Shown here in pieces: positions 2,928 through 42,469 of a stretch of DNA of 44,319 nt (position 1 is its first letter; each line of letters begins with the position of its first letter). Origin of the DNA: Escherichia phage HK1; the sequence record PP514360. One strand, given 5' to 3'. The notes under the pieces are model-generated. The model worked only from the letters and a program-made list of their open reading frames with translations, searched no databases and was not told the DNA's origin. The translations under genes and the position numbers were made by a program.

Positions 2928-3251
2928 TTACGCATAAAAGTTTGGGTCGCGCGCTACGTCTACCAGATACAGATTGCTGATCCGGTTGCCGTAGTGCCCT
3001 GGCGTGCGCTGGCGGCACACAACGGCGAAGCCTGGGGGGATTGTATTGCCCGTCTCAATAATCCACGCCACGCGTGCGCCAGACAGCGTCTTACCGTTGT
3101 ATTCGATACGTGTTCCGCCATCGGCAGTGTTAAGGTTGCCAATCTTGCAGCCTGTGGACTTCAGGCGAATGACGCCGGTCTTGCTGTCGTAGGAAAAAAG
3201 CTGATTGGTCATTGCCACTGAAAAGTCGATGGCGTCGAATGTAGTATTCAT
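2928..3251 (-). CDS. HNH-family homing endonuclease-like protein (NUMOD4/HNH_3-like)
   Basis: LFSYDSKTGVIR resembles the NUMOD4 motif and GHYGNRISNLYLV resembles the NNRxSNL core of HNH_3 endonucleases; GAGGAAAA SD upstream of ATG at 3251. Canonical first His not obvious, so may be degenerate. Confidence 0.45.
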   Translation of the reverse strand: MNTTFDAIDFSVAMTNQLFSYDSKTGVIRLKSTGCKIGNLNTADGGTRIEYNGKTLSGARVAWIIETGNTIPPGFAVVCRQRTPGHYGNRISNLYLVDVARDPNFYA

Positions 3252-5835: not shown

Positions 5836-5870
5836 ACTATACCGCTACGCGACCAATTCAGCAACCAATA
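5836..5870 (-). promoter_or_regulatory. sigma70-like promoter with ATTGGTTGC motif
   Basis: Minus strand ATTTATTGGTTGCTG; TTGCTG-17 nt-TATAGT; upstream of the zinc-ribbon gene. Confidence 0.45.
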
Positions 5871-8639: not shown

Positions 8640-9419
8640 TTAACGACGGCGACGTTTACGTGGTGCTTCGTCTTCGTCGTCTTCGTCCTCATCTTCATCG
8701 TCGCGTGGCTTACGACGTTTACGAGGTTTTTCATCTTCGTCGTCGTCATCGTGGCGCTTGGACTTTTTGGACTTGCGCGGCTTGTCGTCTTCGTCGTCGT
8801 CATCACGACGTTTTGACTTTTTGGACTTGCGCGGGCTTTCATCTTCGTCATCGTTGTCCAGGTCTTCGTCGGAGCAAGAAGAACCGCCACCACCGAAGGA
8901 TTCACCATCATCGCGGAAGCGCAGACCCAGCAAGCCAGCCCCGAGTCCCTTGCCGTTGGTATTGTTCCACGCCCAAATATCAATGGACACGTTGCAATAA
9001 CAACCGGAGTAAATCTCCCGTCCTTCGATCTCGTCGCCTTCTACGGTCAGACCTTGTTCCGTCTGCTTCTCGCCGAGTGACGTTTGAATGTTTGGTTGTT
9101 TGAACGATTTGGTGTTGATATACAACATGCCTTCGAATTCTTCGGTTACTTCGTCGCGCTCATCACCGTCGCGAACAGCGCACTCCTTAGAATCCTGGGC
9201 GTAGTGGCGGTCCATCCACTTATCGGCGTTCTTCTCGGATTTCAGCTTGTCGGTGAGCACTGCGCGCGCTGCCGCTTCCACTTTGTCCACCTGCGGATCT
9301 TCTTTATCCAGAAGAATCACGGCACGGTATGCCGGTTTCTGACCATCTTTTTTAGGGGTATCGCGCTCCCAAATATTAAGGAAACATACGCGCACATTTT
9401 TCAGGTTGACTTTAGCCAT
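8640..9419 (-). CDS. putative ssDNA-binding protein (DUF2815/T7 gp2.5-like) with repetitive acidic/basic C-terminal tail
   Basis: N-terminus MAKVNLKNVRVCFLNIWE resembles the DUF2815 family that commonly sits between DUF2800 and PolA; C-terminus is a tandem repeat (DDDDEDxKPRKSKKSKR). ATG at 9419 (track start at 9440 is GTG). Confidence 0.55.
   Translation of the reverse strand: MAKVNLKNVRVCFLNIWERDTPKKDGQKPAYRAVILLDKEDPQVDKVEAAARAVLTDKLKSEKNADKWMDRHYAQDSKECAVRDGDERDEVTEEFEGMLYINTKSFKQPNIQTSLGEKQTEQGLTVEGDEIEGREIYSGCYCNVSIDIWAWNNTNGKGLGAGLLGLRFRDDGESFGGGGSSCSDEDLDNDDEDESPRKSKKSKRRDDDDEDDKPRKSKKSKRHDDDDEDEKPRKRRKPRDDEDEDEDDEDEAPRKRRRR
8695..8860. repeat. intragenic tandem repeat (~57-bp unit) encoding alternating acidic/basic tail of the SSB-like protein
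   Basis: TTTTTGGACTTGCGCGG...TCGTCGTCGTCATC appears in tandem; encodes DDDDEDxKPRKSKKSKR units. Confidence 0.7.
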
Positions 9420-9509
9420 TTTACAATTTCCCATTTTCACATGTATCGGGGTTATTGTGAGCCACCCCGTTCGGCTTGGTTGCTAATCTACTTGGTTGCG
9501 CCTAAGCGG

Positions 9510-11360: not shown

Positions 11361-11612
11361 TTATTTTGTCTCCCAGCGGTCGATTGTTCTTGCTTCGGAT
11401 GCTACGGCGAAGCGAACATATTCCAGATTAGAATCAGCCCAAGTATAAAAGTCGGGATTAGTAAAGGTGGTGCGCTTAATTTGCGCGGGGGTGTTGCGGC
11501 GTTTATCTATTACGGCAACGCGTGACTGAAAATTGCCGATGCGTTCGAATAACCAATAGTAAGGGCGCTGGTCGCGGGAATCCACCGCCTCGATTAGCGT
11601 GAAGCGTGCCAT
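11361..11612 (-). CDS. hypothetical protein (83 aa)
   Basis: ORF with GAGGA SD upstream of ATG at 11612. Confidence 0.5.
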   Translation of the reverse strand: MARFTLIEAVDSRDQRPYYWLFERIGNFQSRVAVIDKRRNTPAQIKRTTFTNPDFYTWADSNLEYVRFAVASEARTIDRWETK

Positions 11613-11660: not shown

Positions 11661-12176
11661 TTAATCTTCCAGTTCGAAATAGGTTTCGACGATTTCTTTT
11701 AGCTCTTTGTGGAAGTCTTCGACGTCGTCATCTTCCAGCTTGGCGATTGATTTGATCTCGAACGATTCCAGCAGGTCGTCGAATTCGTCGTTCGCGTCGT
11801 CGTCATCACCACCCGCAATAATCGCGGCATACTGTTTGATTTCGTCGCGCATCTCCGCCAGCGGATCGGCATCTTTCTTACCTTTGCCTTTCGCCGGTGC
11901 TTTCTTAGACTTAGCCGGTTTTTCGTCTTCGGCATCGTCGTCGTCATCTTCTACGACTTCTTTTTTAGCCTTACCTTTCGCCGGTGCTTTTTTAGATTTA
12001 GCCGGTTTTTCGTCTTCAGCTTCATCGTCGTCATCTTCGACAACTTCTTTTTTGGCCTTAGACGGCTTCTTGTCTTCCTGCTTACCAACGGCAGCGCCAA
12101 CGGTTTCATAATGCTTTGCAATGGTTTCCAGTGCTACTACGCCGCGAGTGATCAGGTTTACGATTTGCTCAAACAT
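11661..12176 (-). CDS. acidic protein with tandem Lys-rich/Asp-Glu-rich repeats (histone-H1-like KAPAKGK units)
   Basis: Start at MFEQIVNL (ATG 12176) with GGAGA SD; internal 29-aa unit KKEVVEDDDDEAEDEKPAKSKKAPAKGKA repeated twice; strongly acidic C-terminus. The track ORF start at 12356 runs through the promoter region and is unlikely. Confidence 0.55.
   Translation of the reverse strand: MFEQIVNLITRGVVALETIAKHYETVGAAVGKQEDKKPSKAKKEVVEDDDDEAEDEKPAKSKKAPAKGKAKKEVVEDDDDDAEDEKPAKSKKAPAKGKGKKDADPLAEMRDEIKQYAAIIAGGDDDDANDEFDDLLESFEIKSIAKLEDDDVEDFHKELKEIVETYFELED
11881..12057. repeat. intragenic tandem repeat (~88-bp unit, two copies) in the acidic repeat protein gene
   Basis: CCTTTCGCCGGTGCTTT(C/T)TTAGA(C/T)TTAGCCGGTTTTTCGTCTTC...TCGTCGTCATCTTC twice in tandem; resembles the SSB-gene repeat unit at nucleotide level. 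Confidence 0.7.
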
Positions 12177-12413
12177 GGTATATCTCCGATTGGTTAAGTT
12201 TAGGTGTCGGCAGTTAACTTCGTCGGTGGCCTTAACATATTGCCAGGTTACGCGTTCTCCCGTTCGGGTAGTGGACCTGGTTATATAATCACGGTTGGGA
12301 ATCCTGACACTTCGATCCGGCCCCTGCGTTGCCCCTCTCCAGTTTGCGTCCTGCATCCTGTCGACGGGGTGAATAATAGATTGGTTGCAGGATGGGTGTC
12401 AACAACTAATTTC

Positions 12414-12577: not shown

Positions 12578-12907
12578 ATGAATGTAAACGACGCAATCGA
12601 AATGTTAACGAAGACTGTTTGCAGTGAGACAAGCCGGTCATGGGCATATACCGATGCCGTGGGGGCGGTGTTATTTGAAATCGAACGACTGCGGCTTACC
12701 GAAAAAGAATTGCGCGCCAGGCTGGAACTACTCAACGGTACGGCAGCAAGCAAGCTGCAAAAGCACAATGAGGAAATGGAAGAATACAAAAAACAGGTTA
12801 TCCGTTTACGCGATGAGGGGAAGTCATGGGCAATGATCGCGGAGTTGACAGGAATTAATCAGAGCACCGTGCGATCCTGGGTACGCAATAACAAAACTTC
12901 GAAGTAA
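12578..12907 (+). CDS. HTH DNA-binding protein (putative transcriptional regulator)
   Basis: C-terminal KSWAMIAELTGINQSTVRSWVRN is a classic helix-turn-helix; GAGGG SD upstream; first gene of the plus-strand block, downstream of TTGACA-17-TAGTTT. Confidence 0.6.
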   Translation: MNVNDAIEMLTKTVCSETSRSWAYTDAVGAVLFEIERLRLTEKELRARLELLNGTAASKLQKHNEEMEEYKKQVIRLRDEGKSWAMIAELTGINQSTVRSWVRNNKTSK

Positions 12908-15182: not shown

Positions 15183-15275
15183 ATTTTGCGCGCATTGGTT
15201 GCCATTTTGAGCGTTTTTATCTGGGCGCATTGGTTGCCGTGTAGTGTGAATATAATGCATAGTTATGCAATAAAA

Positions 15276-15450
15276 CTGCATAAAACAAACGGGACAAAAA
15301 GCGGGACAAACAGGAGGCGGGACAAAGCGGGACAGCACCCCGTCCCACCCACGGATGACGCGGCCTGGCGAGGAGCGGGACAGCGGGACAGCACCCCAGT
15401 CTTTCAGACTAGACGGGGGGTCTGTCACCCCCCTCGTCTGAGACTGCATA
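15276..15450. repeat. copy A of duplicated non-coding module (GCGGGACA array plus GC-rich hairpin)
   Basis: CTGCATAAAACAAAC followed by four direct GGGACA repeats, GGGAC-agcacccc-GTCCC, two more GCGGGACA, then hairpin CAGTCTTTCAGACTAGACGGGGGG-tctgtca-CCCCCCTCGTCTGAGACTG. Near-identical to 32076-32250. Confidence 0.8.
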
Positions 15451-15605
15451 AAATCCGGGATTGCATATTGCACGGCAGCAGGGTGCGTATTGCGGTCGTC
15501 GACGAACTAGGCAACCAATGCGAGTTGCGGAATGGTGGGCGAAAAATGCAGTTTGCAGTAACAGCAGATAGCGATCGACTTTTTCATGCGCATGATTAAT
15601 ATTGG

Positions 15606-15634
15606 TTGCATTCGTGCCCGCACCCTGCTAGATT
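15606..15634 (+). promoter_or_regulatory. sigma70-like promoter with ATTGGTTGCA motifs
   Basis: TTGCAT-17 nt-TAGATT followed by GGTTGCACACCAACA and the AAGAGGA SD of the gene at 15663. Confidence 0.45.
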
Positions 15635-15662
15635 GGTTGCACACCAACAAGAGGACTGAACA

Positions 15663-17440: not shown

Positions 17441-17492
17441 TTATGCAAGCGTGATATAGTCCCAGTGAGATAAAACTTACTGGGACTTTTTT

Positions 17493-17783
17493 ATGGATAA
17501 GCTAAACGAGTGGCTATTCGCCCTGGCATGTCTGGCGGGTGGCTTCGTAGGCGCACGCATTCATGGTGAGGCTACGAAGGGGCCGCTAAACTTCGTTTTG
17601 TATGTTGTAGTTGGCTTCCTGTGTGCCATATTTGGCGCACCGGCTATCGCTGAGTGGGCTGGTTTGTCGGGGGAGCGCACTGTCGCCGGTTTGGGCTTCG
17701 TGACAGCAATTTTCTGGATGCCAATCGCCGACCGGATCAGGGAGACTATTGCGTCGTTCCGACTTCCGGGGGGTGCAAAATGA
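17493..17783 (+). CDS. holin-like membrane protein (96 aa, ~3 hydrophobic segments)
   Basis: Three hydrophobic stretches; sits two genes upstream of the endolysin. Confidence 0.5.
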   Translation: MDKLNEWLFALACLAGGFVGARIHGEATKGPLNFVLYVVVGFLCAIFGAPAIAEWAGLSGERTVAGLGFVTAIFWMPIADRIRETIASFRLPGGAK

Positions 17784-18025
17784 TTATCTCCGTCCTGTTG
17801 TTTGTTATCATCGGGGCTTCGTCCCTGTTTAACGTGTATGCGCCGTCCGTCCGGGATGGCATTTTCGGCCGGGTGCTGTATCTGTTAACGGCAATGGTCT
17901 GTATTATCGGATTGTTGCAAACAGGAGACGTATCTGATACCACCTGGACCGCGTTAATATGGCTGTTTGCATTGCGCACCCTGCGTAATGCTGTTTTGAA
18001 TGGGGTAAAACATGCGATTCAGTGA
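17780..18025 (+). CDS. holin/antiholin-like membrane protein (81 aa)
   Basis: MIISVLLFVIIGASSLF... hydrophobic; start overlaps the upstream stop (ATGA); immediately precedes and overlaps the endolysin gene. Confidence 0.5.
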   Translation: MIISVLLFVIIGASSLFNVYAPSVRDGIFGRVLYLLTAMVCIIGLLQTGDVSDTTWTALIWLFALRTLRNAVLNGVKHAIQ

Positions 18026-18503
18026 CAACGGTCTACGATTTACGGCAGCATGGGAGACGTTTAGCCCGGTGCCGTATTTCGCGACTAAGAAAGAGCAGGC
18101 CCGTGGCCTGTACACCTGGGGATATGGGCACACCGGCACTAACCCGCCTCGAAGTATTACCCGATCGGAAGCGCTGGAGCTACTTAAGCGCGATGTGGCG
18201 TATGCTGAGGACTGGGTGAACAAATACGCGCATAAGAGCATTAACCAGGCGCAATTCGACGCGCTGGTGGACCTGGTTATCAATGCAGGTCAAGGTCCGA
18301 TCGTACCGGACCATATTGCCAATGACTTCGATGATGCGGTGCGACTGGGAGACTGGGCGAAGGTCCGTGCTACTCTGCCGCAGTTCCGCAAGCAAGGTGG
18401 GGAAGTGCTTAAGGGTCTGGTACGCCGTGCAATCGGCAGACAGGCGTTGTTTGATGGTAAGCAGTGGGACGTTGCCGAGAAAATCGGGCGTAACGCTGCA
18501 TAA
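18012..18503 (+). CDS. endolysin (glycoside hydrolase family 24 lysozyme-like)
   Basis: GLYTWGYGHTG and overall length (163 aa) match the phage lysozyme/muramidase fold. Confidence 0.8.
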   Translation: MRFSDNGLRFTAAWETFSPVPYFATKKEQARGLYTWGYGHTGTNPPRSITRSEALELLKRDVAYAEDWVNKYAHKSINQAQFDALVDLVINAGQGPIVPDHIANDFDDAVRLGDWAKVRATLPQFRKQGGEVLKGLVRRAIGRQALFDGKQWDVAEKIGRNAA

Positions 18504-18720: not shown

Positions 18721-18924
18721 TGCTTGACTCGCAACCAACATAGACGCCATACTGCGACCAATCAACGAGAGGAGTAATCAAGATGGCACGTAAAGATATT
18801 TGGGTATTAGCGATCTGGACCACCGCGGCTTTTATCGGCATGGTTATTTGCGAATTGATATAGCCCGCAGCCATACGGACCGTGGTATATTGTCCACGGT
18901 CCACTAATCAGGAATTAATTAAAT

Positions 18925-23665: not shown

Positions 23666-24752
23666 TCAATATATGGCGGATCGAATGATCCGCCGACACA
23701 TCTTCACCCAGCGCCTGAGCAATGACCAGGCGCGACGGGTGCTGGCTATGTGGGAGAAGTTCCGGCCTACGTTACTGGGAAAGCTGACTGAGTTGCTTGA
23801 TGGCAAATCGTCAATGAACAACAAGGCACTTTCAACCCTGCTAACGCAAATCGACAAGACCGTAAAAACGGAACTGCGCACCGAGTTTAAGGTGTTGGCT
23901 GAAAGCCTTCAGGAGTTTGCCGACACGGAGGCTGATTATCTCGCCGACACATTAACGGCAGCGATCCAGCCGGTGGTCGCCGTACCTGCGGTCGAGGTGG
24001 TTGGCGTAGTGACCGGTGCGCAGATCGCAGCGACGGCTATGAAAAACCCGTTCCAGGGAAATACCATGATGCAATGGCCTGATTCATTGTCTGAGTGGAC
24101 CAGGACGCAGATCGGGAATCAGGTGCGCGCTGGATTCATCCAGGGCAAGCCAACTATGGAAATTATAGCGGACGTGAGGCGCGCGCTCGGCGGTCGTAGC
24201 GCGCAAGCCATCTCGAGCGTTGTTAAGTCCGCAGTCAACCACTATGCGGCGACAGCCCGCGAACTAATGGTGAAAGCAAATGACGATATTCTCGAAGGTC
24301 GCCAATGGTTATCTACATTGGACACGCATACTTCTCCCATGTGCCAGCTACGCGATCGCCTGTTTTATCCGGTTGATGTTACTCCCGACACCAAAGGAAA
24401 GCGCGGCGGGAAAATGGTGGCTGGGTCACAATATGGCGCTGGGCCGGGTAAGTTGCATTATTGTTGCCGGTCGACGGAGACGTGGAAGGTTAAAGGCATG
24501 GAAGATTGGCCCAGTGGTAAGCGTCCGGCACTGAAGGCTGACGCGGGGCGATTGCTGAGTGAGCAGGCCGACGCGCAGACTGATTTCTTCTCATGGGTGC
24601 AGCGCCAGCCGCGCCATATCCTGGAGGAATTATACGGGGTGCAACGCGCCGACCAGATTATGCGCGGCGTGAAAGTCCCGAAGATGTTCACCGATTCCGG
24701 CGAACTAATGACTATCGCACAGCTTAAAAACCGGGGGTTATGGCGTGATTAA
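23649..24752 (+). CDS. head morphogenesis protein (Mu F / SPP1 gp7-like minor capsid protein)
   Basis: 367 aa ORF after the portal and overlapping its end; call rests on position and size. Confidence 0.6.
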   Translation: MAKTINQYMADRMIRRHIFTQRLSNDQARRVLAMWEKFRPTLLGKLTELLDGKSSMNNKALSTLLTQIDKTVKTELRTEFKVLAESLQEFADTEADYLADTLTAAIQPVVAVPAVEVVGVVTGAQIAATAMKNPFQGNTMMQWPDSLSEWTRTQIGNQVRAGFIQGKPTMEIIADVRRALGGRSAQAISSVVKSAVNHYAATARELMVKANDDILEGRQWLSTLDTHTSPMCQLRDRLFYPVDVTPDTKGKRGGKMVAGSQYGAGPGKLHYCCRSTETWKVKGMEDWPSGKRPALKADAGRLLSEQADAQTDFFSWVQRQPRHILEELYGVQRADQIMRGVKVPKMFTDSGELMTIAQLKNRGLWRD

Positions 24753-25074
24753 ATATGCGGCTATTGGACTGGTTATGGGTCTGGCGGTAGGATTCTGGCT
24801 AGGTGACTCCTACCGCGCTGGCGTAGTGGCGAAGGCGGCGCAAGAAGCGCAATCCCAAGCCCAACGGCAGCAAACTAAAGTAATTGAGCGCTCCGTGCAG
24901 GCAGAACAAGCCCGCGACGTGGAATACCGGACTATCACAAAAGAGGTTGTTAAATATGTTACGCGCCCTAACCGCCCTGATTGTAGTTTTGACGCTGAGC
25001 GCGTGCGGATCAAGCAGCGTGCCGTTGATGCCGCTAACGGAATCGGCACTGCGACCGCCGTGCAAGTTCGATAA
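24745..25074 (+). CDS. putative i-spanin (Rz-like: N-terminal TM helix plus coiled coil)
   Basis: MIKYAAIGLVMGLAVGFWLG transmembrane segment followed by a Gln/Ala/Glu-rich helical region; partly overlaps a lipoprotein ORF in another frame. Confidence 0.45.
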   Translation: MIKYAAIGLVMGLAVGFWLGDSYRAGVVAKAAQEAQSQAQRQQTKVIERSVQAEQARDVEYRTITKEVVKYVTRPNRPDCSFDAERVRIKQRAVDAANGIGTATAVQVR

Positions 25075-25186
25075 CCCGTCTGCGGACCCCGACGAAGATT
25101 TGATGATTGACGTGAAAAATATGGAATGCGGGGCGAAGCTAAGGGCGCAGGTGCTGGAGTTGCAGCAAATAATTAAGGGGCCATAA
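24956..25186 (+). CDS. putative o-spanin (Rz1-like outer-membrane lipoprotein)
   Basis: MLRALTALIVVLTLSACGSS: signal peptide with LSAC lipobox; Pro-rich mature part; overlaps the 3' end of the i-spanin candidate out of frame; AAGAGG SD. Confidence 0.45.
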   Translation: MLRALTALIVVLTLSACGSSSVPLMPLTESALRPPCKFDNPSADPDEDLMIDVKNMECGAKLRAQVLELQQIIKGP

Positions 25187-25198
25187 TGGCCCCTTTTT
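25176..25198. terminator. terminator between convergent genes (GGGGCC-N-GGCCCC family)
   Basis: GGGGCC-ataat-GGCCCC followed by TTTTT on the plus strand; sits between the plus-strand spanin pair and the minus-strand gene ending at 25201. Confidence 0.6.
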
Positions 25199-25200
25199 CG

Positions 25201-25965
25201 TTAGCGCGGAATACCGCAAATCTCGTTGAGAGTTTTCACGTCCAGCGCCACCGCCGAGGATTTTGGCTTGTCCGGGTACGGGATGAATTGCTCAACTTCA
25301 GGCCATGCCTTAATCAGCTTCTTATCGGTATTGTGCATATCCAGCACGCCGGTAACAGTTAGTTTGAACGCGTCATACTTAGCCCGCAACTCACGGCGGG
25401 CCTTGTCGTTACGGTCTAGGCGCTTGCAGAAATCATGGTCCGCCGGGTAGTCTACGCGACCGCGTGGGAGATATATCGGCAGCGCTTTCCCGTCCTCGTC
25501 CACTTCGCACACTGAAGCCAGCATAACTGTCTCGAACCCCGGAACGATATCGCCGAGATCGGGCGCGAGCTTATTCATATATTTCTCTTCCCAGTACCCG
25601 CGATGCACGCGGTATTGGCGACCGTCTCCACTCAATGACAAGGTGCGAACATTTCCGCCTGCGTTGATTTCGAAAGTGGCGTCGTAAACGCTGCCGATAC
25701 CTTTCGGGCGGTCGGAGTTATAACTATACGTCGCCTTGTTGGTGTATACGCTGACGCCGTACATCTGCGACTGGTCGTCGCGAATTGCCTTGATATGCTC
25801 GCGGAGCGCTGCGAACGTGCGAATGCCTTCTGGCATACAGTCCAGCGTAATGGCATAAGCCAGATCGCGCGAGTCCATCATGATTTGTTTGGCTTCGGTC
25901 GCTATTTCGTGGTCGCGCAGGATGTTAGCCAGGATCTGATTTTTAATGTCTTTCGTCAGTCTCAT
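25201..25965 (-). CDS. hypothetical protein (254 aa), antisense to the structural module
   Basis: Minus-strand ORF with GAGGA SD upstream of ATG at 25965; ends at a shared convergent terminator (25176-25198). Confidence 0.6.
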   Translation of the reverse strand: MRLTKDIKNQILANILRDHEIATEAKQIMMDSRDLAYAITLDCMPEGIRTFAALREHIKAIRDDQSQMYGVSVYTNKATYSYNSDRPKGIGSVYDATFEINAGGNVRTLSLSGDGRQYRVHRGYWEEKYMNKLAPDLGDIVPGFETVMLASVCEVDEDGKALPIYLPRGRVDYPADHDFCKRLDRNDKARRELRAKYDAFKLTVTGVLDMHNTDKKLIKAWPEVEQFIPYPDKPKSSAVALDVKTLNEICGIPR

Positions 25966-26004
25966 TTTTATGTCCTCATTATTGGGGCTTTCGCCCCGGT
26001 TGGT

Positions 26005-26319
26005 TTAGTTGAATTTGATGTTGCCACCGGTGGAAGTTAAGCGGGCACATACAGCTTCAACGGCATCGACGCACATGAAATCGTTAAAGGCTTCGACCAG
26101 GGCGTTTATGAAAGATGCCGGAACCAGGCCGCAAGCCGGATTATCAAATGTTGCGGAGTTGATCGCCGCTTTTGCCGCTTCGGAAGCATTCATGCTCTGG
26201 CACAGATTCAGCGCTTCCGCGTTACGCATTGCGTGAAAGGTAAAGGTATTCGCTACGGTAGCTTTATTGAAACGGGCCATTGCGGCGTCTACTGGAGTTG
26301 CTACGGTCATGTTAGTCAT
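26005..26319 (-). CDS. hypothetical protein (~104 aa), antisense to the structural module
   Basis: Minus-strand ORF; start chosen at MTNMTV (AAGGAAA SD); alternatives at 26334 (ATG) and 26370 (TTG). Promoter TTGCAC-18-TATATT at 26355-26384. Confidence 0.5.
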   Translation of the reverse strand: MTNMTVATPVDAAMARFNKATVANTFTFHAMRNAEALNLCQSMNASEAAKAAINSATFDNPACGLVPASFINALVEAFNDFMCVDAVEAVCARLTSTGGNIKFN

Positions 26320-26354
26320 CTTGTTTTCCTTCATATCTCTGTTGGTGTGCAACC

Positions 26355-26384
26355 AATATAGCGCAACCAATTCCCGCAGTGCAA
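26355..26384 (-). promoter_or_regulatory. sigma70-like promoter of the antisense cassette with ATTGGTTGC motifs
   Basis: Minus strand TTGCAC-18 nt-TATATT followed by GGTTGCACACCAACA, the same post-box sequence as at 15635-15649. Confidence 0.45.
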
Positions 26385-26474
26385 GCGAATTTTGCGATTA
26401 TTTTTATCACTGATAATATTAGAGGCGTGAAGTCGAGCGGGTGGCCCGCTCTGCCACAATCCCAGGGGGATAGC

Positions 26475-27176
26475 ATGAAACTTACTAAAGCAGAATATGA
26501 CGCGTTGCCGGAAGGTATGAAGGCGCTTTTTGTTGCCGATGGCGATGGGTATAAATCAACGTTCATGACCGCCGAAGAAGTACAGGCGGAGATCAAGGGT
26601 CTGAAAGACAACAATGCGAAGCTGGTGAGCGAGAAGAAAGCAGAAGCCGAACGCCGCGCCGAAGCTGAGCGCCTTGCGAAAGAGAAAGAGGAAGCCGCCG
26701 CGCGCAAAAATGGCGACCTCGAAGCGATCGACAAGTCCTGGAAGGATAAGTTTGCGAAATACGAAGCAGACACATCGGGAAAAATCGAAGCCTACCGCAA
26801 GCAGATCCACGATCTAACCATCGGCAGCGCTGCCAAAGATTTGGCCTCGAAGCTGTTCGGTAAGAATGCTGGAATCATGCAACGCCACGTAATGGACCGC
26901 CTGACGCTGGAAGACGGCGAAGACGGCAGCTTGAAGGTGCGTGTCTTGCAGGATGGTAAACCGTCCGCGCTGACTATGGAAGAGCTTGAAAAAGAGTTCC
27001 GTAATAACGCCGATTTTGCATCCGTCCTGGCTGGCACGCCAGCCGGTGGTGCGCCGAGCAAACCGACGCATGTTGTCGAAGATGTGAAGTCGAAAATCTC
27101 TATGGGCCACAGCTTCGGCATCACCGATCTGACGAAACAGGCTGGTGAAATCATCGCTAAAATGGGCGACGAGTAA
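26475..27176 (+). CDS. putative scaffolding protein
   Basis: MKLTKAEYDALPEGMKALF...; Glu/Lys/Ala-rich helical region; directly precedes the major capsid gene; AGGGGGA SD; followed by a terminator. Confidence 0.55.
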   Translation: MKLTKAEYDALPEGMKALFVADGDGYKSTFMTAEEVQAEIKGLKDNNAKLVSEKKAEAERRAEAERLAKEKEEAAARKNGDLEAIDKSWKDKFAKYEADTSGKIEAYRKQIHDLTIGSAAKDLASKLFGKNAGIMQRHVMDRLTLEDGEDGSLKVRVLQDGKPSALTMEELEKEFRNNADFASVLAGTPAGGAPSKPTHVVEDVKSKISMGHSFGITDLTKQAGEIIAKMGDE

Positions 27177-31933: not shown

Positions 31934-31967
31934 GCGGGACAAAACGGGACGTCCCGTTTTGTCCCGC
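31934..31967. promoter_or_regulatory. perfect 34-bp palindrome built from GCGGGACA units
   Basis: GCGGGACAAAACGGGAC|GTCCCGTTTTGTCCCGC, five nt after the GT stop codon; candidate operator or hairpin. Confidence 0.55.
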
Positions 31968-32075: not shown

Positions 32076-32250
32076 CTGCATAAAACAAACGGGACAGAAA
32101 GCGGGACAGAATGAGGCGGGACAAAGCGGGACAGCACCCCGTCCCCGTCAGTGCTGCCGCGGGTTTTAGCCGATCGGGACAGGCGGGACAAAGCCCAGTC
32201 TTTCAGACTAGACGGGGGTCATCGGCCCCCCTCGTCTGAGACTGAATAAG
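32076..32250. repeat. copy B of duplicated non-coding module (GCGGGACA array plus GC-rich hairpin)
   Basis: Same order of elements as copy A with a few substitutions; hairpin arms conserved while the loop differs (tcatcgg versus tctgtca). Confidence 0.8.
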
Positions 32251-41201: not shown

Positions 41202-42165
41202 AATAGATGTTAGGAATTACGAGTAACGGGGTGGGTACTGCAATATTTTTACCCGGCATTTGGAATTGCTGCCGTGAATAGTTGCCGATTACCCGGTTTT
41301 TGGCGATGCGCACATTACCGCCTGCCATTCGAATCCCGTTCATTCGAACGTGATTGTAGCCGCCGTTGTTCTCAATGAGCGCGCCGGTATACGAAAGCTG
41401 GACCAGGCTATTGCCTATGTACTGATCGCCGCCGCCGATATAGATAAGGCGGTCATAAACAAATGGCTTATTCACTGTTGAGAACGTGACCTGACCCTGG
41501 TTGTTTGTCATGGTGATGCCGTTTCCAGGGGTGGGTGGCGTATTGTTGAATATAACCAGGTCCATTTCAACGGCAGCGCCTACGTCGTCAATCCCGCCAT
41601 AGGACGCATTACGGACGATAATACTTCCGCCATCGAAGCCGACCGACACGTTTCCGTCGTCCCAGCGCGCGAATGGGACACCGCCTACAGGTAACGGCAT
41701 ACTTCCGTTCACCCACACGCGCTGCGCATATTGGCAGGTCATTAGCCTGGATACATTTGATATGGCGGTGAAGTCCGTCGAGTTCGCCACCAGTAACCCC
41801 GCGTTGCGCGAACCAACCGGCAACACTTCCATGATCACCCCGCCCCATGTTGGAAGCCCGCTATATGCGCCATATGCGTCTTCACCTCGCAAGGTGATTC
41901 CGCCATCCCCGTTACGTTGTACTGAGGTGACGTAGAAAGGGTCGGGCAAGACCAGTGTCTGGTCGAATACTTCTATAACTTCAACGGGGCTTGTGAGCGC
42001 GACGACCAGATCTGACCCTGGCGTTAGCTGAGTGTTAATAGTAAGCGTCTTATCAGACTGGCAGCGCTGATAGAATGAGGTACAGAATGACGGCGCGCGA
42101 AGTCCTGCGGTTATCTCCATGCGCGGCCTTCCGTCGTTGTAGTCGATAAGTATCCCAGCGCCCAT
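41200..42165 (-). CDS. hypothetical beta-rich protein (321 aa), co-transcribed with the lipoprotein; possible receptor-binding/host-range protein
   Basis: Minus-strand ORF rich in Gly/Asn/Val/Thr; ATG at 42165 overlaps the lipoprotein stop (TAATG); ends at a bidirectional terminator. Confidence 0.5.
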   Translation of the reverse strand: MGAGILIDYNDGRPRMEITAGLRAPSFCTSFYQRCQSDKTLTINTQLTPGSDLVVALTSPVEVIEVFDQTLVLPDPFYVTSVQRNGDGGITLRGEDAYGAYSGLPTWGGVIMEVLPVGSRNAGLLVANSTDFTAISNVSRLMTCQYAQRVWVNGSMPLPVGGVPFARWDDGNVSVGFDGGSIIVRNASYGGIDDVGAAVEMDLVIFNNTPPTPGNGITMTNNQGQVTFSTVNKPFVYDRLIYIGGGDQYIGNSLVQLSYTGALIENNGGYNHVRMNGIRMAGGNVRIAKNRVIGNYSRQQFQMPGKNIAVPTPLLVIPNIY

Positions 42166-42389
42166 TACTTCCACTCCCGTGATTTAACTGAAACAGTGCC
42201 GGAAAAATTGCCGTCACTATCGGCAGACAGCCCAGTGAATCGCAAGTCCACATCCCCGGAGGGCACTTTTTGCCCGTCAACGTAGCGCAACATGCAGCTA
42301 CCGTAAGCCATAGTAATGCAATCGCCGTTGTTGCGTTCTACAGCACAGCCGGACAACATAACCGCACAAATCATAATTAAAGTTTTCAT
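42165..42389 (-). CDS. small outer-membrane lipoprotein (Cor/Llp-like superinfection-exclusion candidate)
   Basis: MKTLIMICAVMLSGC: signal peptide with LSGC lipobox; 74 aa; AGGAAA SD; promoter with ATTGGTTGCAT motif at 42421-42448; antisense between the J-like and tail fibre genes. Confidence 0.5.
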   Translation of the reverse strand: MKTLIMICAVMLSGCAVERNNGDCITMAYGSCMLRYVDGQKVPSGDVDLRFTGLSADSDGNFSGTVSVKSREWK

Positions 42390-42420: not shown

Positions 42421-42448
42421 GTATTACACCGCTCGACCATTAATGCAA
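42421..42448 (-). promoter_or_regulatory. sigma70-like promoter of the lipoprotein cassette with ATTGGTTGCAT motif
   Basis: Minus strand ATTGGTTGCAT; TTGCAT-16 nt-TAATAC; downstream sequence AATGGTCGAGCGG resembles AATTGGTCGCG at the 5836-5864 promoter. Confidence 0.4.
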
Positions 42449-42469
42449 CCAATTTATGAGGATTCAGCT

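Follow-up and report, generated by a model that had tools for sequence, protein, structure and literature searches.

An antisense unit in the head-gene block of a Dhillonvirus genome combines a near-core nmad5 gene with an exchangeable gene slot

Background

The genome of Escherichia phage HK1 (sequence record PP514360; 44,319 nucleotides, the whole of which is called the window below) carries two genes on the minus strand, at 25201-25965 and 26005-26319, within an otherwise plus-strand block of structural genes. Why genes should run against the direction of a head operon, and whether these two belong together, are the questions raised by this locus. An earlier note, made from the sequence alone, had proposed a moron or accessory cassette of two genes with its own promoter and terminator, and had found no assignable motif in either protein.

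Comparison across the genus resolves the locus into two layers, each with its own history, within one antisense transcription unit: the gene nmad5 and a cassette slot in its leader. The larger gene, nmad5, is a near-core yet dispensable gene of the genus Dhillonvirus and belongs to a phage-only protein family, and the smaller gene is a passenger in the slot and not a partner of nmad5. The identity and architecture of the locus are solid, while the mechanism is one that we infer, and independent transcription of the unit is predicted from the signals that flank it. With a probability of about 55%, we favor a reading in which Nmad5 is a non-catalytic, protein-binding accessory factor of the phage replication module and the slot next to it carries host-interaction genes.

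To judge from its alignments, the window is an essentially complete, circularly permuted genome of a Dhillonvirus, a member of the HK578 / SSL-2009a group of virulent E. coli siphoviruses. Over 24700-26900, Dhillonvirus sp. EcoIv6a_Kente shares 99.8% identity with it, and more than 100 further members share 94-96%. Alignment to the annotated phage JLBYU60 places the late block, from terminase to tail, on the plus strand at 20122-40982, and the minus-strand replication operon together with plus-strand early and lysis genes at 1-20121.

Layout of the antisense unit

The unit is made up of the following elements, given with the evidence for each:

25175-25195, both strands: bidirectional intrinsic-terminator hairpin (scan call and folding)
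25201-25965, minus strand: nmad5, 254 amino acids (aa) (Pfam PF18757, phrog_1965, substitution rates; wild-type K216)
25966-26004, minus strand: intercistronic spacer with a GNRA-loop hairpin followed by the nmad5 Shine-Dalgarno sequence GAGGA (folding, locus comparison)
26005-26319, minus strand: passenger gene, 104 aa (phrog_24635, alignment, substitution rates)
26320-26348, minus strand: 5' leader between the predicted transcription start (about 26348) and the passenger ATG (start placed from the position of the -10)
26349-26357 (overlapping -10/+1) and 26363-26371 (in the promoter spacer), minus strand: two exact copies of ATTGGTTGC (exact match)
26355-26384, minus strand: predicted nmad5 promoter, with the -35 TTGCAC at 26384-26379, an 18-nt spacer and the -10 TATATT at 26360-26355

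An embedded i-spanin/o-spanin pair (24745-25186) lies on one flank and the scaffold gene, with its start at about 26475, on the other, so that the location given in the earlier note, between spanins and scaffold in a plus-strand structural block, is confirmed. The lysis cassette of this genome is itself split, with the spanin pair in the head block and the holin and endolysin genes about 7 kb upstream of it (about 17490-18500 by synteny with JLBYU60). An Rfam search of the region and of the whole window returned no match.

Distribution and divergence of the two genes

Both minus-strand open reading frames (ORFs) are real genes, as had been proposed, with strong matches to protein families and with ratios of nonsynonymous to synonymous substitution (dN/dS), across Dhillonvirus loci, of 0.12 for nmad5 and 0.08 for the small gene, which indicate purifying selection on each. 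The 254-aa protein, far from lacking an assignable motif, matches the Pfam family PF18757 (Nmad5, 'nucleotide modification associated domain 5') end to end, with residues 1-253 aligned to model positions 1-206 of 206 with a score of 206.1 bits (cut-off 27; E 7.9e-61), and it matches phrog_1965 as well (E 9.6e-64); the gene moreover has a published phenotype within the genus, which is taken up below. Among the 156 phage records that contain the neighboring portal and head-morphogenesis genes, nmad5 is found at the DNA level in 145 (~93%), and 80% or more of the protein is encoded in 145. Natural lesions of the gene occur in two isolated and viable phages. In Teewinot (L004, ~3001-3140) an internal deletion of ~640 bp with a frameshift has left, besides the promoter, 33 codons at the start of the gene and a few at its end, and in SM_S24 (L052:720-1274) the protein is truncated near residue 170, with the loss of the conserved region that holds K216, the WPE motif and the tail.

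The longest frame of the second minus-strand ORF extends over 26005-26370, within which the ATG at 26319 (104 aa, MTNMTV...) is the best start because homologues are 102-104 aa long, phage SM_A8 annotates 315 nt, and the codons farther upstream are leader. The apparent 'MKENK' codons upstream of 26319 correspond to the leader GAGATATGAAGGAAAACAAGATG, which carries the Shine-Dalgarno sequence and precedes an unrelated gene in other phages, and the start chosen in the earlier note is thereby upheld. The 104-aa protein matches phrog_24635 (E 1.2e-71) and no Pfam family, and a PDB profile search with it gave nothing meaningful. It has only 6 representatives among 1.84 billion proteins, 3 of which are long repetitive proteins taken as compositional matches, and the cluster names of its relatives all read 'hypothetical protein'. 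AlphaFold2 predicts an all-helical protein at low confidence, with a predicted local distance difference test score (pLDDT) of 48, and the protein is mildly acidic (isoelectric point 5.1). Residues H29, C63, C83 and C91 are invariant in its alignment, which suggests metal binding.

The small gene is much less common than nmad5, with about 59-62 Dhillonvirus records containing it (~59/156, ~38%). Homologues occur in unrelated phages that have no Nmad5 nearby, namely the Pantoea Dibbivirus AAM37, Ackermannviridae and the Shigella phage Gloob (158.7 kb), and a GC hairpin follows each homologue in the Dibbivirus and Ackermannviridae phages. Synonymous divergence (dS) is 0.29 for the small gene versus 0.49 for nmad5, and DNA matches with at least 95% identity account for 48 of 59 in the former and for 1 of 145 in the latter. 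This lesser divergence of the small gene fits a recent lateral spread. The GC content of the small gene is 49.7%, that of nmad5 53.7% and that of the window 54.6%, a modest difference over 315 nt.

The slot in the nmad5 leader

The state of the slot was tabulated for 20 distinct Dhillonvirus loci, drawn from roughly 150 genomes. Seven of them are empty and seven hold the 104-aa gene; genes of 135-172 aa that begin MPTLIK... occupy three, a 53-aa gene two and a gene for a protein resembling a beta clamp one, the MPTLIK and 53-aa genes being unrelated to the 104-aa gene. The promoter and TATATTGGTTGCACACCAACA are constant in all 20 loci, whatever stands downstream. In an empty slot, of which phage Oekolampad is an example among the seven, the nmad5 start codon follows after 35 nt, with the promoter and ACACCAACA adjoining the nmad5 ribosome-binding site. 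In the window, the leader at 26320-26348 contains ACACCAACA and the shared Shine-Dalgarno leader GAGATATGAAGGAAAACAAG, and the leader is identical ahead of unrelated passenger genes, as in locus L022.

The frame is equally constant on the other side of the insert. A GGGGC-GAAA-GCCCC hairpin at about 25979-25992 (folding free energy, dG, of -11.5 kcal/mol), which has no U-tract, lies between the passenger and nmad5, and the same GNRA hairpin follows unrelated slot genes in three other loci (L017, L018 and L022) and is missing where the slot is empty. In the Shigella phage EP23 (L017:1872-2501) the slot gene encodes a protein of 172 aa that is similar to the beta clamp of DNA polymerase III, with the motif DVRYYLNGVFF, a match to phrog_3007 (E 3e-55) and a weak match to the Pfam family DNA_pol3_beta_2. 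The last 8 codons of the 104-aa gene remain behind this replacement gene, from which it follows that one gene has been replaced by another within a fixed frame. Filled slots are flanked by short CCAACA direct repeats, between which recombination would yield an empty slot. These observations establish the slot as an accessory hot spot, where small genes unrelated to one another replace each other while the frame of promoter, leader, hairpin and ribosome-binding site stays constant. The beta-clamp-like allele points to DNA replication as much as to defense as the business of the slot genes.

These surveys divide the moron or accessory cassette of the earlier note into a part that stands and a part that does not. 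An antisense unit with its own promoter and terminator and with non-essential content is indeed present, but its acquisition as a two-gene unit is contradicted by the frequencies of the two genes (~145 versus ~59 of 156). The patchy presence expected of a moron is seen for the small gene (~59/156; 7 of the 20 loci, against 7 that are empty) and not for nmad5 (~145/156), so that the presence/absence survey which the note had recommended separates a near-core gene from one of several slot alleles.

Promoter and terminator

The promoter elements read by the earlier note, TTGCAC-18-TATATT with two exact ATTGGTTGC copies, are present in the sequence, and the site is kept in the 20 loci, with the -35 as TTGCA[C/T/A/G] and TATATTGGTTGCA invariant. 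It agrees with the sigma-70 consensus at 8 of 12 positions (TTGCAC 3/6, TATATT 5/6) over an 18-nt spacer, and a generic sigma-70 scan misses it because of this limited match and the weak -35. A degenerate third copy of the motif, ATTCGCTTGCAC, supplies the -35. Genomes with an empty slot carry this promoter in identical form, so it belongs to nmad5 and not to the small gene. The inserted gene therefore does not bring signals of its own: the promoter is that of nmad5, and the hairpin at the 3' end lacks a U-tract and is common to unrelated inserts.

The window contains the motif ATTGGTTGC 14 times in exact form, where chance would give ~0.3 (2 x 44,319 / 4^9). If one mismatch is permitted the count is 25, for an expectation of 12.5, and 0 of 100 shuffles reached 25. 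The sites lie at 1240, 2902-2927, 5849-5869, 9475-9499, 12380, 15194-15237, 15511, 15601-15640, 16187, 18731-18762, 26349-26371 and 42445; they are often paired at distances of 12-35 nt, intergenic, and clustered in the early/replication half of the genome. At four of them, 2927(-), 5869(-), 12380(+) and 15601(+), the motif provides a TTGCNN -35 that is followed after 16-17 nt by a TAnnnT -10, with ORF starts 28-165 nt downstream. These four are cleaner sites than the nmad5 promoter, which has the same architecture. The -10, start region and leader of nmad5 recur almost unchanged at 15632 (TAGATTGGTTGCACACCAACAagaggac). In the late half, the only copies are those of the nmad5 promoter and 42445(-). 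The motif looks like a phage-specific extended promoter or operator element of non-late genes, and from its membership in this promoter family the nmad5 unit would be transcribed with the non-late genes. A literature search for promoter or transcription data on Dhillonvirus returned nothing useful.

Two genes near copies of the motif deserve mention in their own right. The copy at 42445-42453 forms part of a promoter-like ATTGGTTGCAT-N16-TAATAC, of the same family as the nmad5 promoter, ahead of a second antisense gene in the late block (42165-42389, minus strand), which encodes a small lipoprotein (MKTLIMICAVMLSGC...) called 'superinfection exclusion' in relatives. The first gene after the 12380 promoter (12578-12907, plus strand) encodes a 109-aa protein with a C-terminal helix-turn-helix (HTH_23, E 4e-7; Sigma70_r4_2, E 4e-6), which is annotated as a Gam-like nuclease inhibitor in a relative and is a candidate regulator for the ATTGGTTGC motif.

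The convergent terminator of the earlier note is likewise found, as a hairpin AAGGGGCC-ATA-ATGGCCCCTT at 25175-25195 with a 9-bp stem of which 6 pairs are GC, placed in the 14-nt gap between the convergent stop codons of the o-spanin gene (25186) and nmad5 (25201). It is called on both strands, with a dG of -21.8 kcal/mol on the plus strand and -19.6 kcal/mol on the minus strand and a z-score of about -3.4. On the plus strand an unbroken U-tract follows (TTTTTCG), and on the minus strand the tract is interrupted (TTAATTATTTG). Teewinot keeps the hairpin despite its nmad5 deletion. The terminator is predicted to end both the plus-strand transcription that runs from terminase to spanins and the minus-strand transcription of nmad5.

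Conservation and predicted structure of Nmad5

An alignment of 32 family members, reaching down to 20% identity and dominated by two subgroups, shows the residues under strongest constraint. L208, L217 and W221 are invariant, and M1, R2, L3, T4, T213, P222, K233, L246, N247, C250, G251 and P253 are conserved in at least 90% of the sequences. The family signature, consisting of an MRLT N-terminus, the motif (N/T)T-x-x-K-L-x-x-x-WPE and a tail A-[VI]-A-L...TLN-x-[IL]-CG-[IL]-P, is complete in the window protein, whose extremely conserved ends read MRLTKDIK at the N-terminus and AVALDVKTLNEICGIPR in the C-terminal tail. Within the genus, variation is concentrated in residues 41-180, and residues 1-40 and 181-254 are almost invariant.

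The invariant positions are hydrophobic, the single conserved acidic position is E/D223, and no cluster of His or Cys was found among the 32 sequences. In the AlphaFold2 model (pLDDT 69; predicted template modeling score, pTM, 0.69), helices 5-62 and 178-227 make up a core that is predicted with confidence, the beta-rich insert is poorly defined, and the tail of 23 residues (232-254), which is highly conserved, falls below a pLDDT of 50. Conservation combined with low pLDDT is typically seen in peptides that take up their fold only when bound to a partner, and the tail may be one. Of the two structure predictions that the earlier note had called for, then, one gave a usable core, that of Nmad5, and the other, that of the 104-aa protein, a model too unreliable to serve in a fold search.

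Searches by sequence and structure gave little beyond the family itself. Foldseek with the Nmad5 model against BFVD returned only other Nmad5 phage proteins, a PDB profile search gave nothing meaningful, and neither PADLOC nor NCBIfam matched Nmad5 or the 104-aa protein, a sigma-factor match at E 0.15 being discarded as noise. Neither a catalytic fold nor a conserved constellation of catalytic residues was found in Nmad5 in the alignment or in these sequence and structure searches. Family members are known in phages of Escherichia, Pseudomonas, Vibrio and Bordetella, and a search of 185,579 representative bacterial genomes, made with two conserved motif patterns only, found no relatives. The label 'nucleotide modification' rests on gene neighborhood only.

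nmad5 in other phages

The neighborhood from which the family takes its name is that of the Yuaviruses, and no other phage examined has it. In Yuavirus PAC6, nmad5 lies in the thymidine-hypermodification cluster between aGPT-Pplase1 and a thymidylate-synthase-like gene, a position also described in the literature (PMC9476957). The 5-NedU pathway of phage M6 has been reconstituted in vitro with gp51-gp54 and without the Nmad5 protein (PMC8989533). None of the base-modification neighbors (aGPT-Pplase, 5-hmdU DNA kinase, hydroxymethylase, or genes of the radical-SAM/PLP type) accompanies nmad5 in the window, where spanins and scaffold stand instead, and the annotated genome of a close relative contains only Dam- and Dcm-type methyltransferases and no hydroxymethylase, kinase or aGPT-Pplase genes.

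Three uncultured phages of 40-49 kb (L026, L027 and L040) have a replication module in which the gene order follows that of the window, with identities of 48% for the primase-helicase, 47-55% for the DUF2800 nuclease, 46% for the DUF2815/Enc34 single-stranded DNA-binding protein and 65% for PolA. In these sister phages Nmad5, at 23-28% identity and with the same termini, is encoded inside the replication operon, between homologues of the window genes at 11661-12356 and 11361-11612. Elsewhere, the gene lies between helicase and resolvase/primase in HeidiAbel, closes the early operon before the lysis genes in C130_2 and Susuwatari, and stands among small early-type genes in Pondi and Vibrio D283b. 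The head-block position seen in Dhillonvirus is already found in a 65%-identical relative (L028).

A paralogue of Nmad5 at the canonical position in the replication operon was considered for the window and rejected, as the 231-aa gene there (11661-12356, minus strand, at the head of the operon) encodes an unrelated acidic repeat protein. This protein consists of tandem acidic/lysine-rich repeats VVEDDDD(E/D)AEDEKPAKSKKAPAKGK, belongs to no Pfam family, and matches the gene preceding nmad5 in the sister phages only over its C-terminal ~31 residues; a role as DNA mimic or as histone-like protein is conceivable. Tandem duplications of 83 and 102 nt, at 83-88% identity, were seen at 8719-8854 (region of the DUF2815-type gene) and at 11872-12060 (the repeat unit of the acidic protein), respectively. 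A 176-bp direct repeat of 84% identity and without an Rfam match links two intergenic regions, 15276-15451 downstream of the primase-helicase gene and 32076-32249 upstream of the tape-measure gene, and a perfect 34-bp palindrome (31934-31967) lies just upstream of the second copy, before the tape-measure gene.

The K216E allele and the proposed role of Nmad5

The published phenotype comes from selection of the Dhillonviruses SM_A8 and SMS22 on Tmn-expressing E. coli, which gave the nmad5 allele K216E (Yamashita et al. 2025, Commun Biol 8:290, PMC11846954), numbered K296E in SMS22, whose annotated Nmad5 has 80 more residues at its N-terminus. Reversion of K216E restored Tmn sensitivity and its introduction conferred escape, whereas deletion of nmad5 gave viable phages but no escape, and the gene could not be cloned, apparently owing to toxicity (PMC11846954). 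In the same study SM_S24 was still inhibited by Tmn, one escape mutant carried a scaffold mutation too, the anti-Tmn gene of SMS22 was ORF35, at another locus than nmad5 or the slot, and Nmad5 was treated as a DNA-modification enzyme and as a Tmn 'sensing' gene (PMC11846954).

The window encodes the wild-type K216 and so carries the Tmn-sensitive allele. Position 216, between the invariant L208 on one side and L217 and W221 on the other and within the family signature motif, is K in 23 of the 32 sequences, Q in 7, R in 1 and A in 1, and is never acidic, so that by this alignment K216E is a charge reversal of a conserved basic residue in the signature. Because deletion of nmad5 gives no escape, we read K216E as a separation of function and not as a loss of function. 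By the same token, it is hard to reconcile an unchanged Tmn sensitivity after deletion with a Tmn system that senses a modification made by Nmad5.

In the reading that we favor, the unit would probably be expressed early or in the middle phase of infection together with the DNA-metabolism genes, in the direction opposite to that of the late head operon. Nmad5, with its conserved helical core, would act as a non-catalytic adaptor of the replication or DNA-metabolism module, docking through its conserved termini and presenting the fast-evolving, beta-rich middle as a modulatory surface. K216E would then be a separation-of-function or 'poisoned-complex' allele which alters the binding of Nmad5, for instance by trapping the true Tmn trigger in an inactive complex, and such trapping would explain why a missense change gives escape and a deletion does not. 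The passenger genes would ride on the nmad5 promoter for early expression, and are probably host-interaction or counter-defense genes.

Several points weigh against this reading. The -35 is weak (3/6), and the proposed promoter activity and timing derive from conservation and from sharing of the motif; the interpretation of the Nmad5 termini as docking peptides likewise derives only from conservation and low pLDDT. With a model of moderate quality and an alignment dominated by two subgroups, Nmad5 may have a cryptic active site, and the toxicity met in cloning would fit an enzyme acting on host DNA or nucleotides as well. The Yuavirus gene does sit in the middle of a cluster of thymidine-hypermodification genes, and for the passenger protein the structural model is unreliable (pLDDT 48).

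Alternative explanations

Among the alternatives, the one that survives best, although we consider it unlikely, is that Nmad5 is a dedicated counter-defense inhibitor of a host immune or repair factor, with a variable middle that tracks its targets and a K216E allele that extends its range to Tmn; it overlaps in part with the favored reading. It is in keeping with a non-essential gene in which a single substitution, and not a deletion, escapes Tmn (PMC11846954), with a variable middle between constrained ends, with the slot of exchangeable genes alongside, and with a phage-only family that had no relatives in the bacterial genomes searched with the two motifs. Yet wild-type Nmad5 gives no protection from Tmn, K216E falls in the most conserved motif and not in the variable region, and PADLOC and anti-defense annotations are absent. 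The conservation of the family across phages of Escherichia, Pseudomonas, Vibrio and Bordetella also argues for a conserved phage partner or a universal one over a strain-specific target. The small gene and Nmad5 were both considered as the Avs2 trigger Ksap1 or the RAZR trigger and rejected, as these are a 74-aa protein encoded elsewhere in the genome and the portal protein.

Somewhat less probable still is that Nmad5 is a DNA- or nucleotide-modifying enzyme whose product is sensed by Tmn and whose specificity is shifted by K216E. The family name and the Yuavirus cluster (PMC9476957), the toxicity on cloning (PMC11846954) and the annotation of the Susuwatari homologue as 'nucleotide modification protein' speak for an enzyme, but the label is one of guilt by association, no constellation of catalytic type and no similarity to any enzyme in sequence or structure emerged from the searches made, and the neighbors in most phages examined are replication, lysis or unknown genes. 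The modification itself, moreover, is made for M6 5-NedU in vitro without Nmad5 (PMC8989533), and Dhillonvirus lacks hydroxymethylase, kinase and aGPT-Pplase genes, while deletion of nmad5 leaves Tmn sensitivity unchanged (PMC11846954).

A more far-reaching version of the adaptor idea, which we hold to be about as doubtful as the enzyme, is that the misnamed Nmad5 docks through its terminal peptides on a universal bacterial or phage component of the replisome or repair machinery, that defense systems such as Tmn read the state of this complex, so that a charge reversal at K216 would escape Tmn and a deletion would not, and that the nmad5 leader is a plug-in site for early-expressed host-takeover genes, such as a beta-clamp mimic or the 104-aa protein with its possible Cys3His metal-binding site.

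Two further explanations are very improbable. In the first, the two genes would be a co-acquired moron cassette, possibly a toxic Nmad5 with a small protein as antidote or partner, in line with their adjacency, common orientation, common promoter and terminator, and the toxicity of nmad5 when cloned alone (PMC11846954); against this, nmad5 occurs without the small gene in 13 of the 20 loci (7 empty and 6 with three unrelated genes), the small gene occurs without Nmad5 in the Dibbivirus and Ackermannviridae phages, the depths of divergence differ (dS 0.49 versus 0.29), and the GC contents of the two genes (53.7% and 49.7%) depart only modestly from the 54.6% of the window. A toxin-antitoxin or other obligate pairing of nmad5 with the small gene was rejected by the same presence/absence survey. 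In the second, a structural or assembly role (decoration, capsid-internal or chaperone protein) would follow from the position between the head-morphogenesis and scaffold genes, which is kept across the genus and in the 65%-identical relative, and from the scaffold mutation in one Tmn escape mutant (PMC11846954), but the unit lies on the opposite strand behind a promoter of the early/replication type, the sister-phage gene is in the replication operon and not in the head module, no structural-protein homology was found in the Pfam, PHROG and structure searches, and, with a viable deletion and natural truncations, the accessory character proposed in the earlier note stands.

Comparison with known systems

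The closest known system is nmad5 of SM_A8 and SMS22 (PMC11846954), which is the same gene in the same genus and position; SM_A8 has, as does the window, a 765-nt nmad5, a 315-nt small gene and the scaffold gene. The published study reads the protein as a modification enzyme, whereas we find no enzymatic features and read the escape allele as one of altered binding, and the variable slot, the promoter family and the sister-phage position in the replication operon do not figure in it (PMC11846954).

Nmad5 of Yuavirus or M6-like Pseudomonas phages belongs to the same Pfam family, is 36-41% identical over residues 169-253 and shares the WPE motif and the tail, but it is shorter (186 aa), lacks most of the beta-rich insert, and is surrounded by cluster genes absent from Dhillonvirus. 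The three sister phages, with the 232-aa form of the Hungariovirus C130_2 type, have full-length homologues and a collinear replication module; their nmad5 is co-oriented within a replication/early operon, in contrast to the Dhillonvirus gene, which stands alone and antisense in the head block behind a private promoter.

Should Nmad5 be a non-catalytic replication adaptor, escape from Tmn would point to altered protein complexes and not to DNA chemistry, and K216E would offer a handle on the triggering of the poorly understood Tmn (KAP NTPase) system. The family is widespread, phage-only and labeled by its neighborhood, and this label has been taken at face value (PMC11846954). The slot, for its part, is a compact and naturally validated site of payload insertion for therapeutic Dhillonvirus phages, and its alleles make a short candidate list of host-interaction genes for screening.

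Morons, as described by Hendrix and colleagues for lambdoid and other tailed phages, are extra genes with their own promoter and terminator inserted between conserved genes. The 104-aa gene resembles them in its presence or absence in collinear genomes, its 3' hairpin and its homologues in unrelated phages, and its GC content is modestly lower. Unlike a moron, it has no promoter of its own, is inserted in the leader of another gene behind a resident promoter, and is one allele of a multi-allelic slot, and nmad5 itself is not a moron.

Virulent phage genomes have hypervariable hot spots for accessory or anti-defense genes. The slot is like these in that unrelated small genes alternate between conserved flanks behind a promoter of the non-late type, and differs from them in that its genes have no known anti-defense activity and one allele is beta-clamp-like, with a DnaN-type domain. 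The locus is already present many times in GenBank and its nmad5 phenotype is published (PMC11846954), so that this is not a new kind of biology; what is new, as far as the searched literature shows, is the slot, the promoter family and the synteny argument, which moves Nmad5 toward a replication-module accessory protein.

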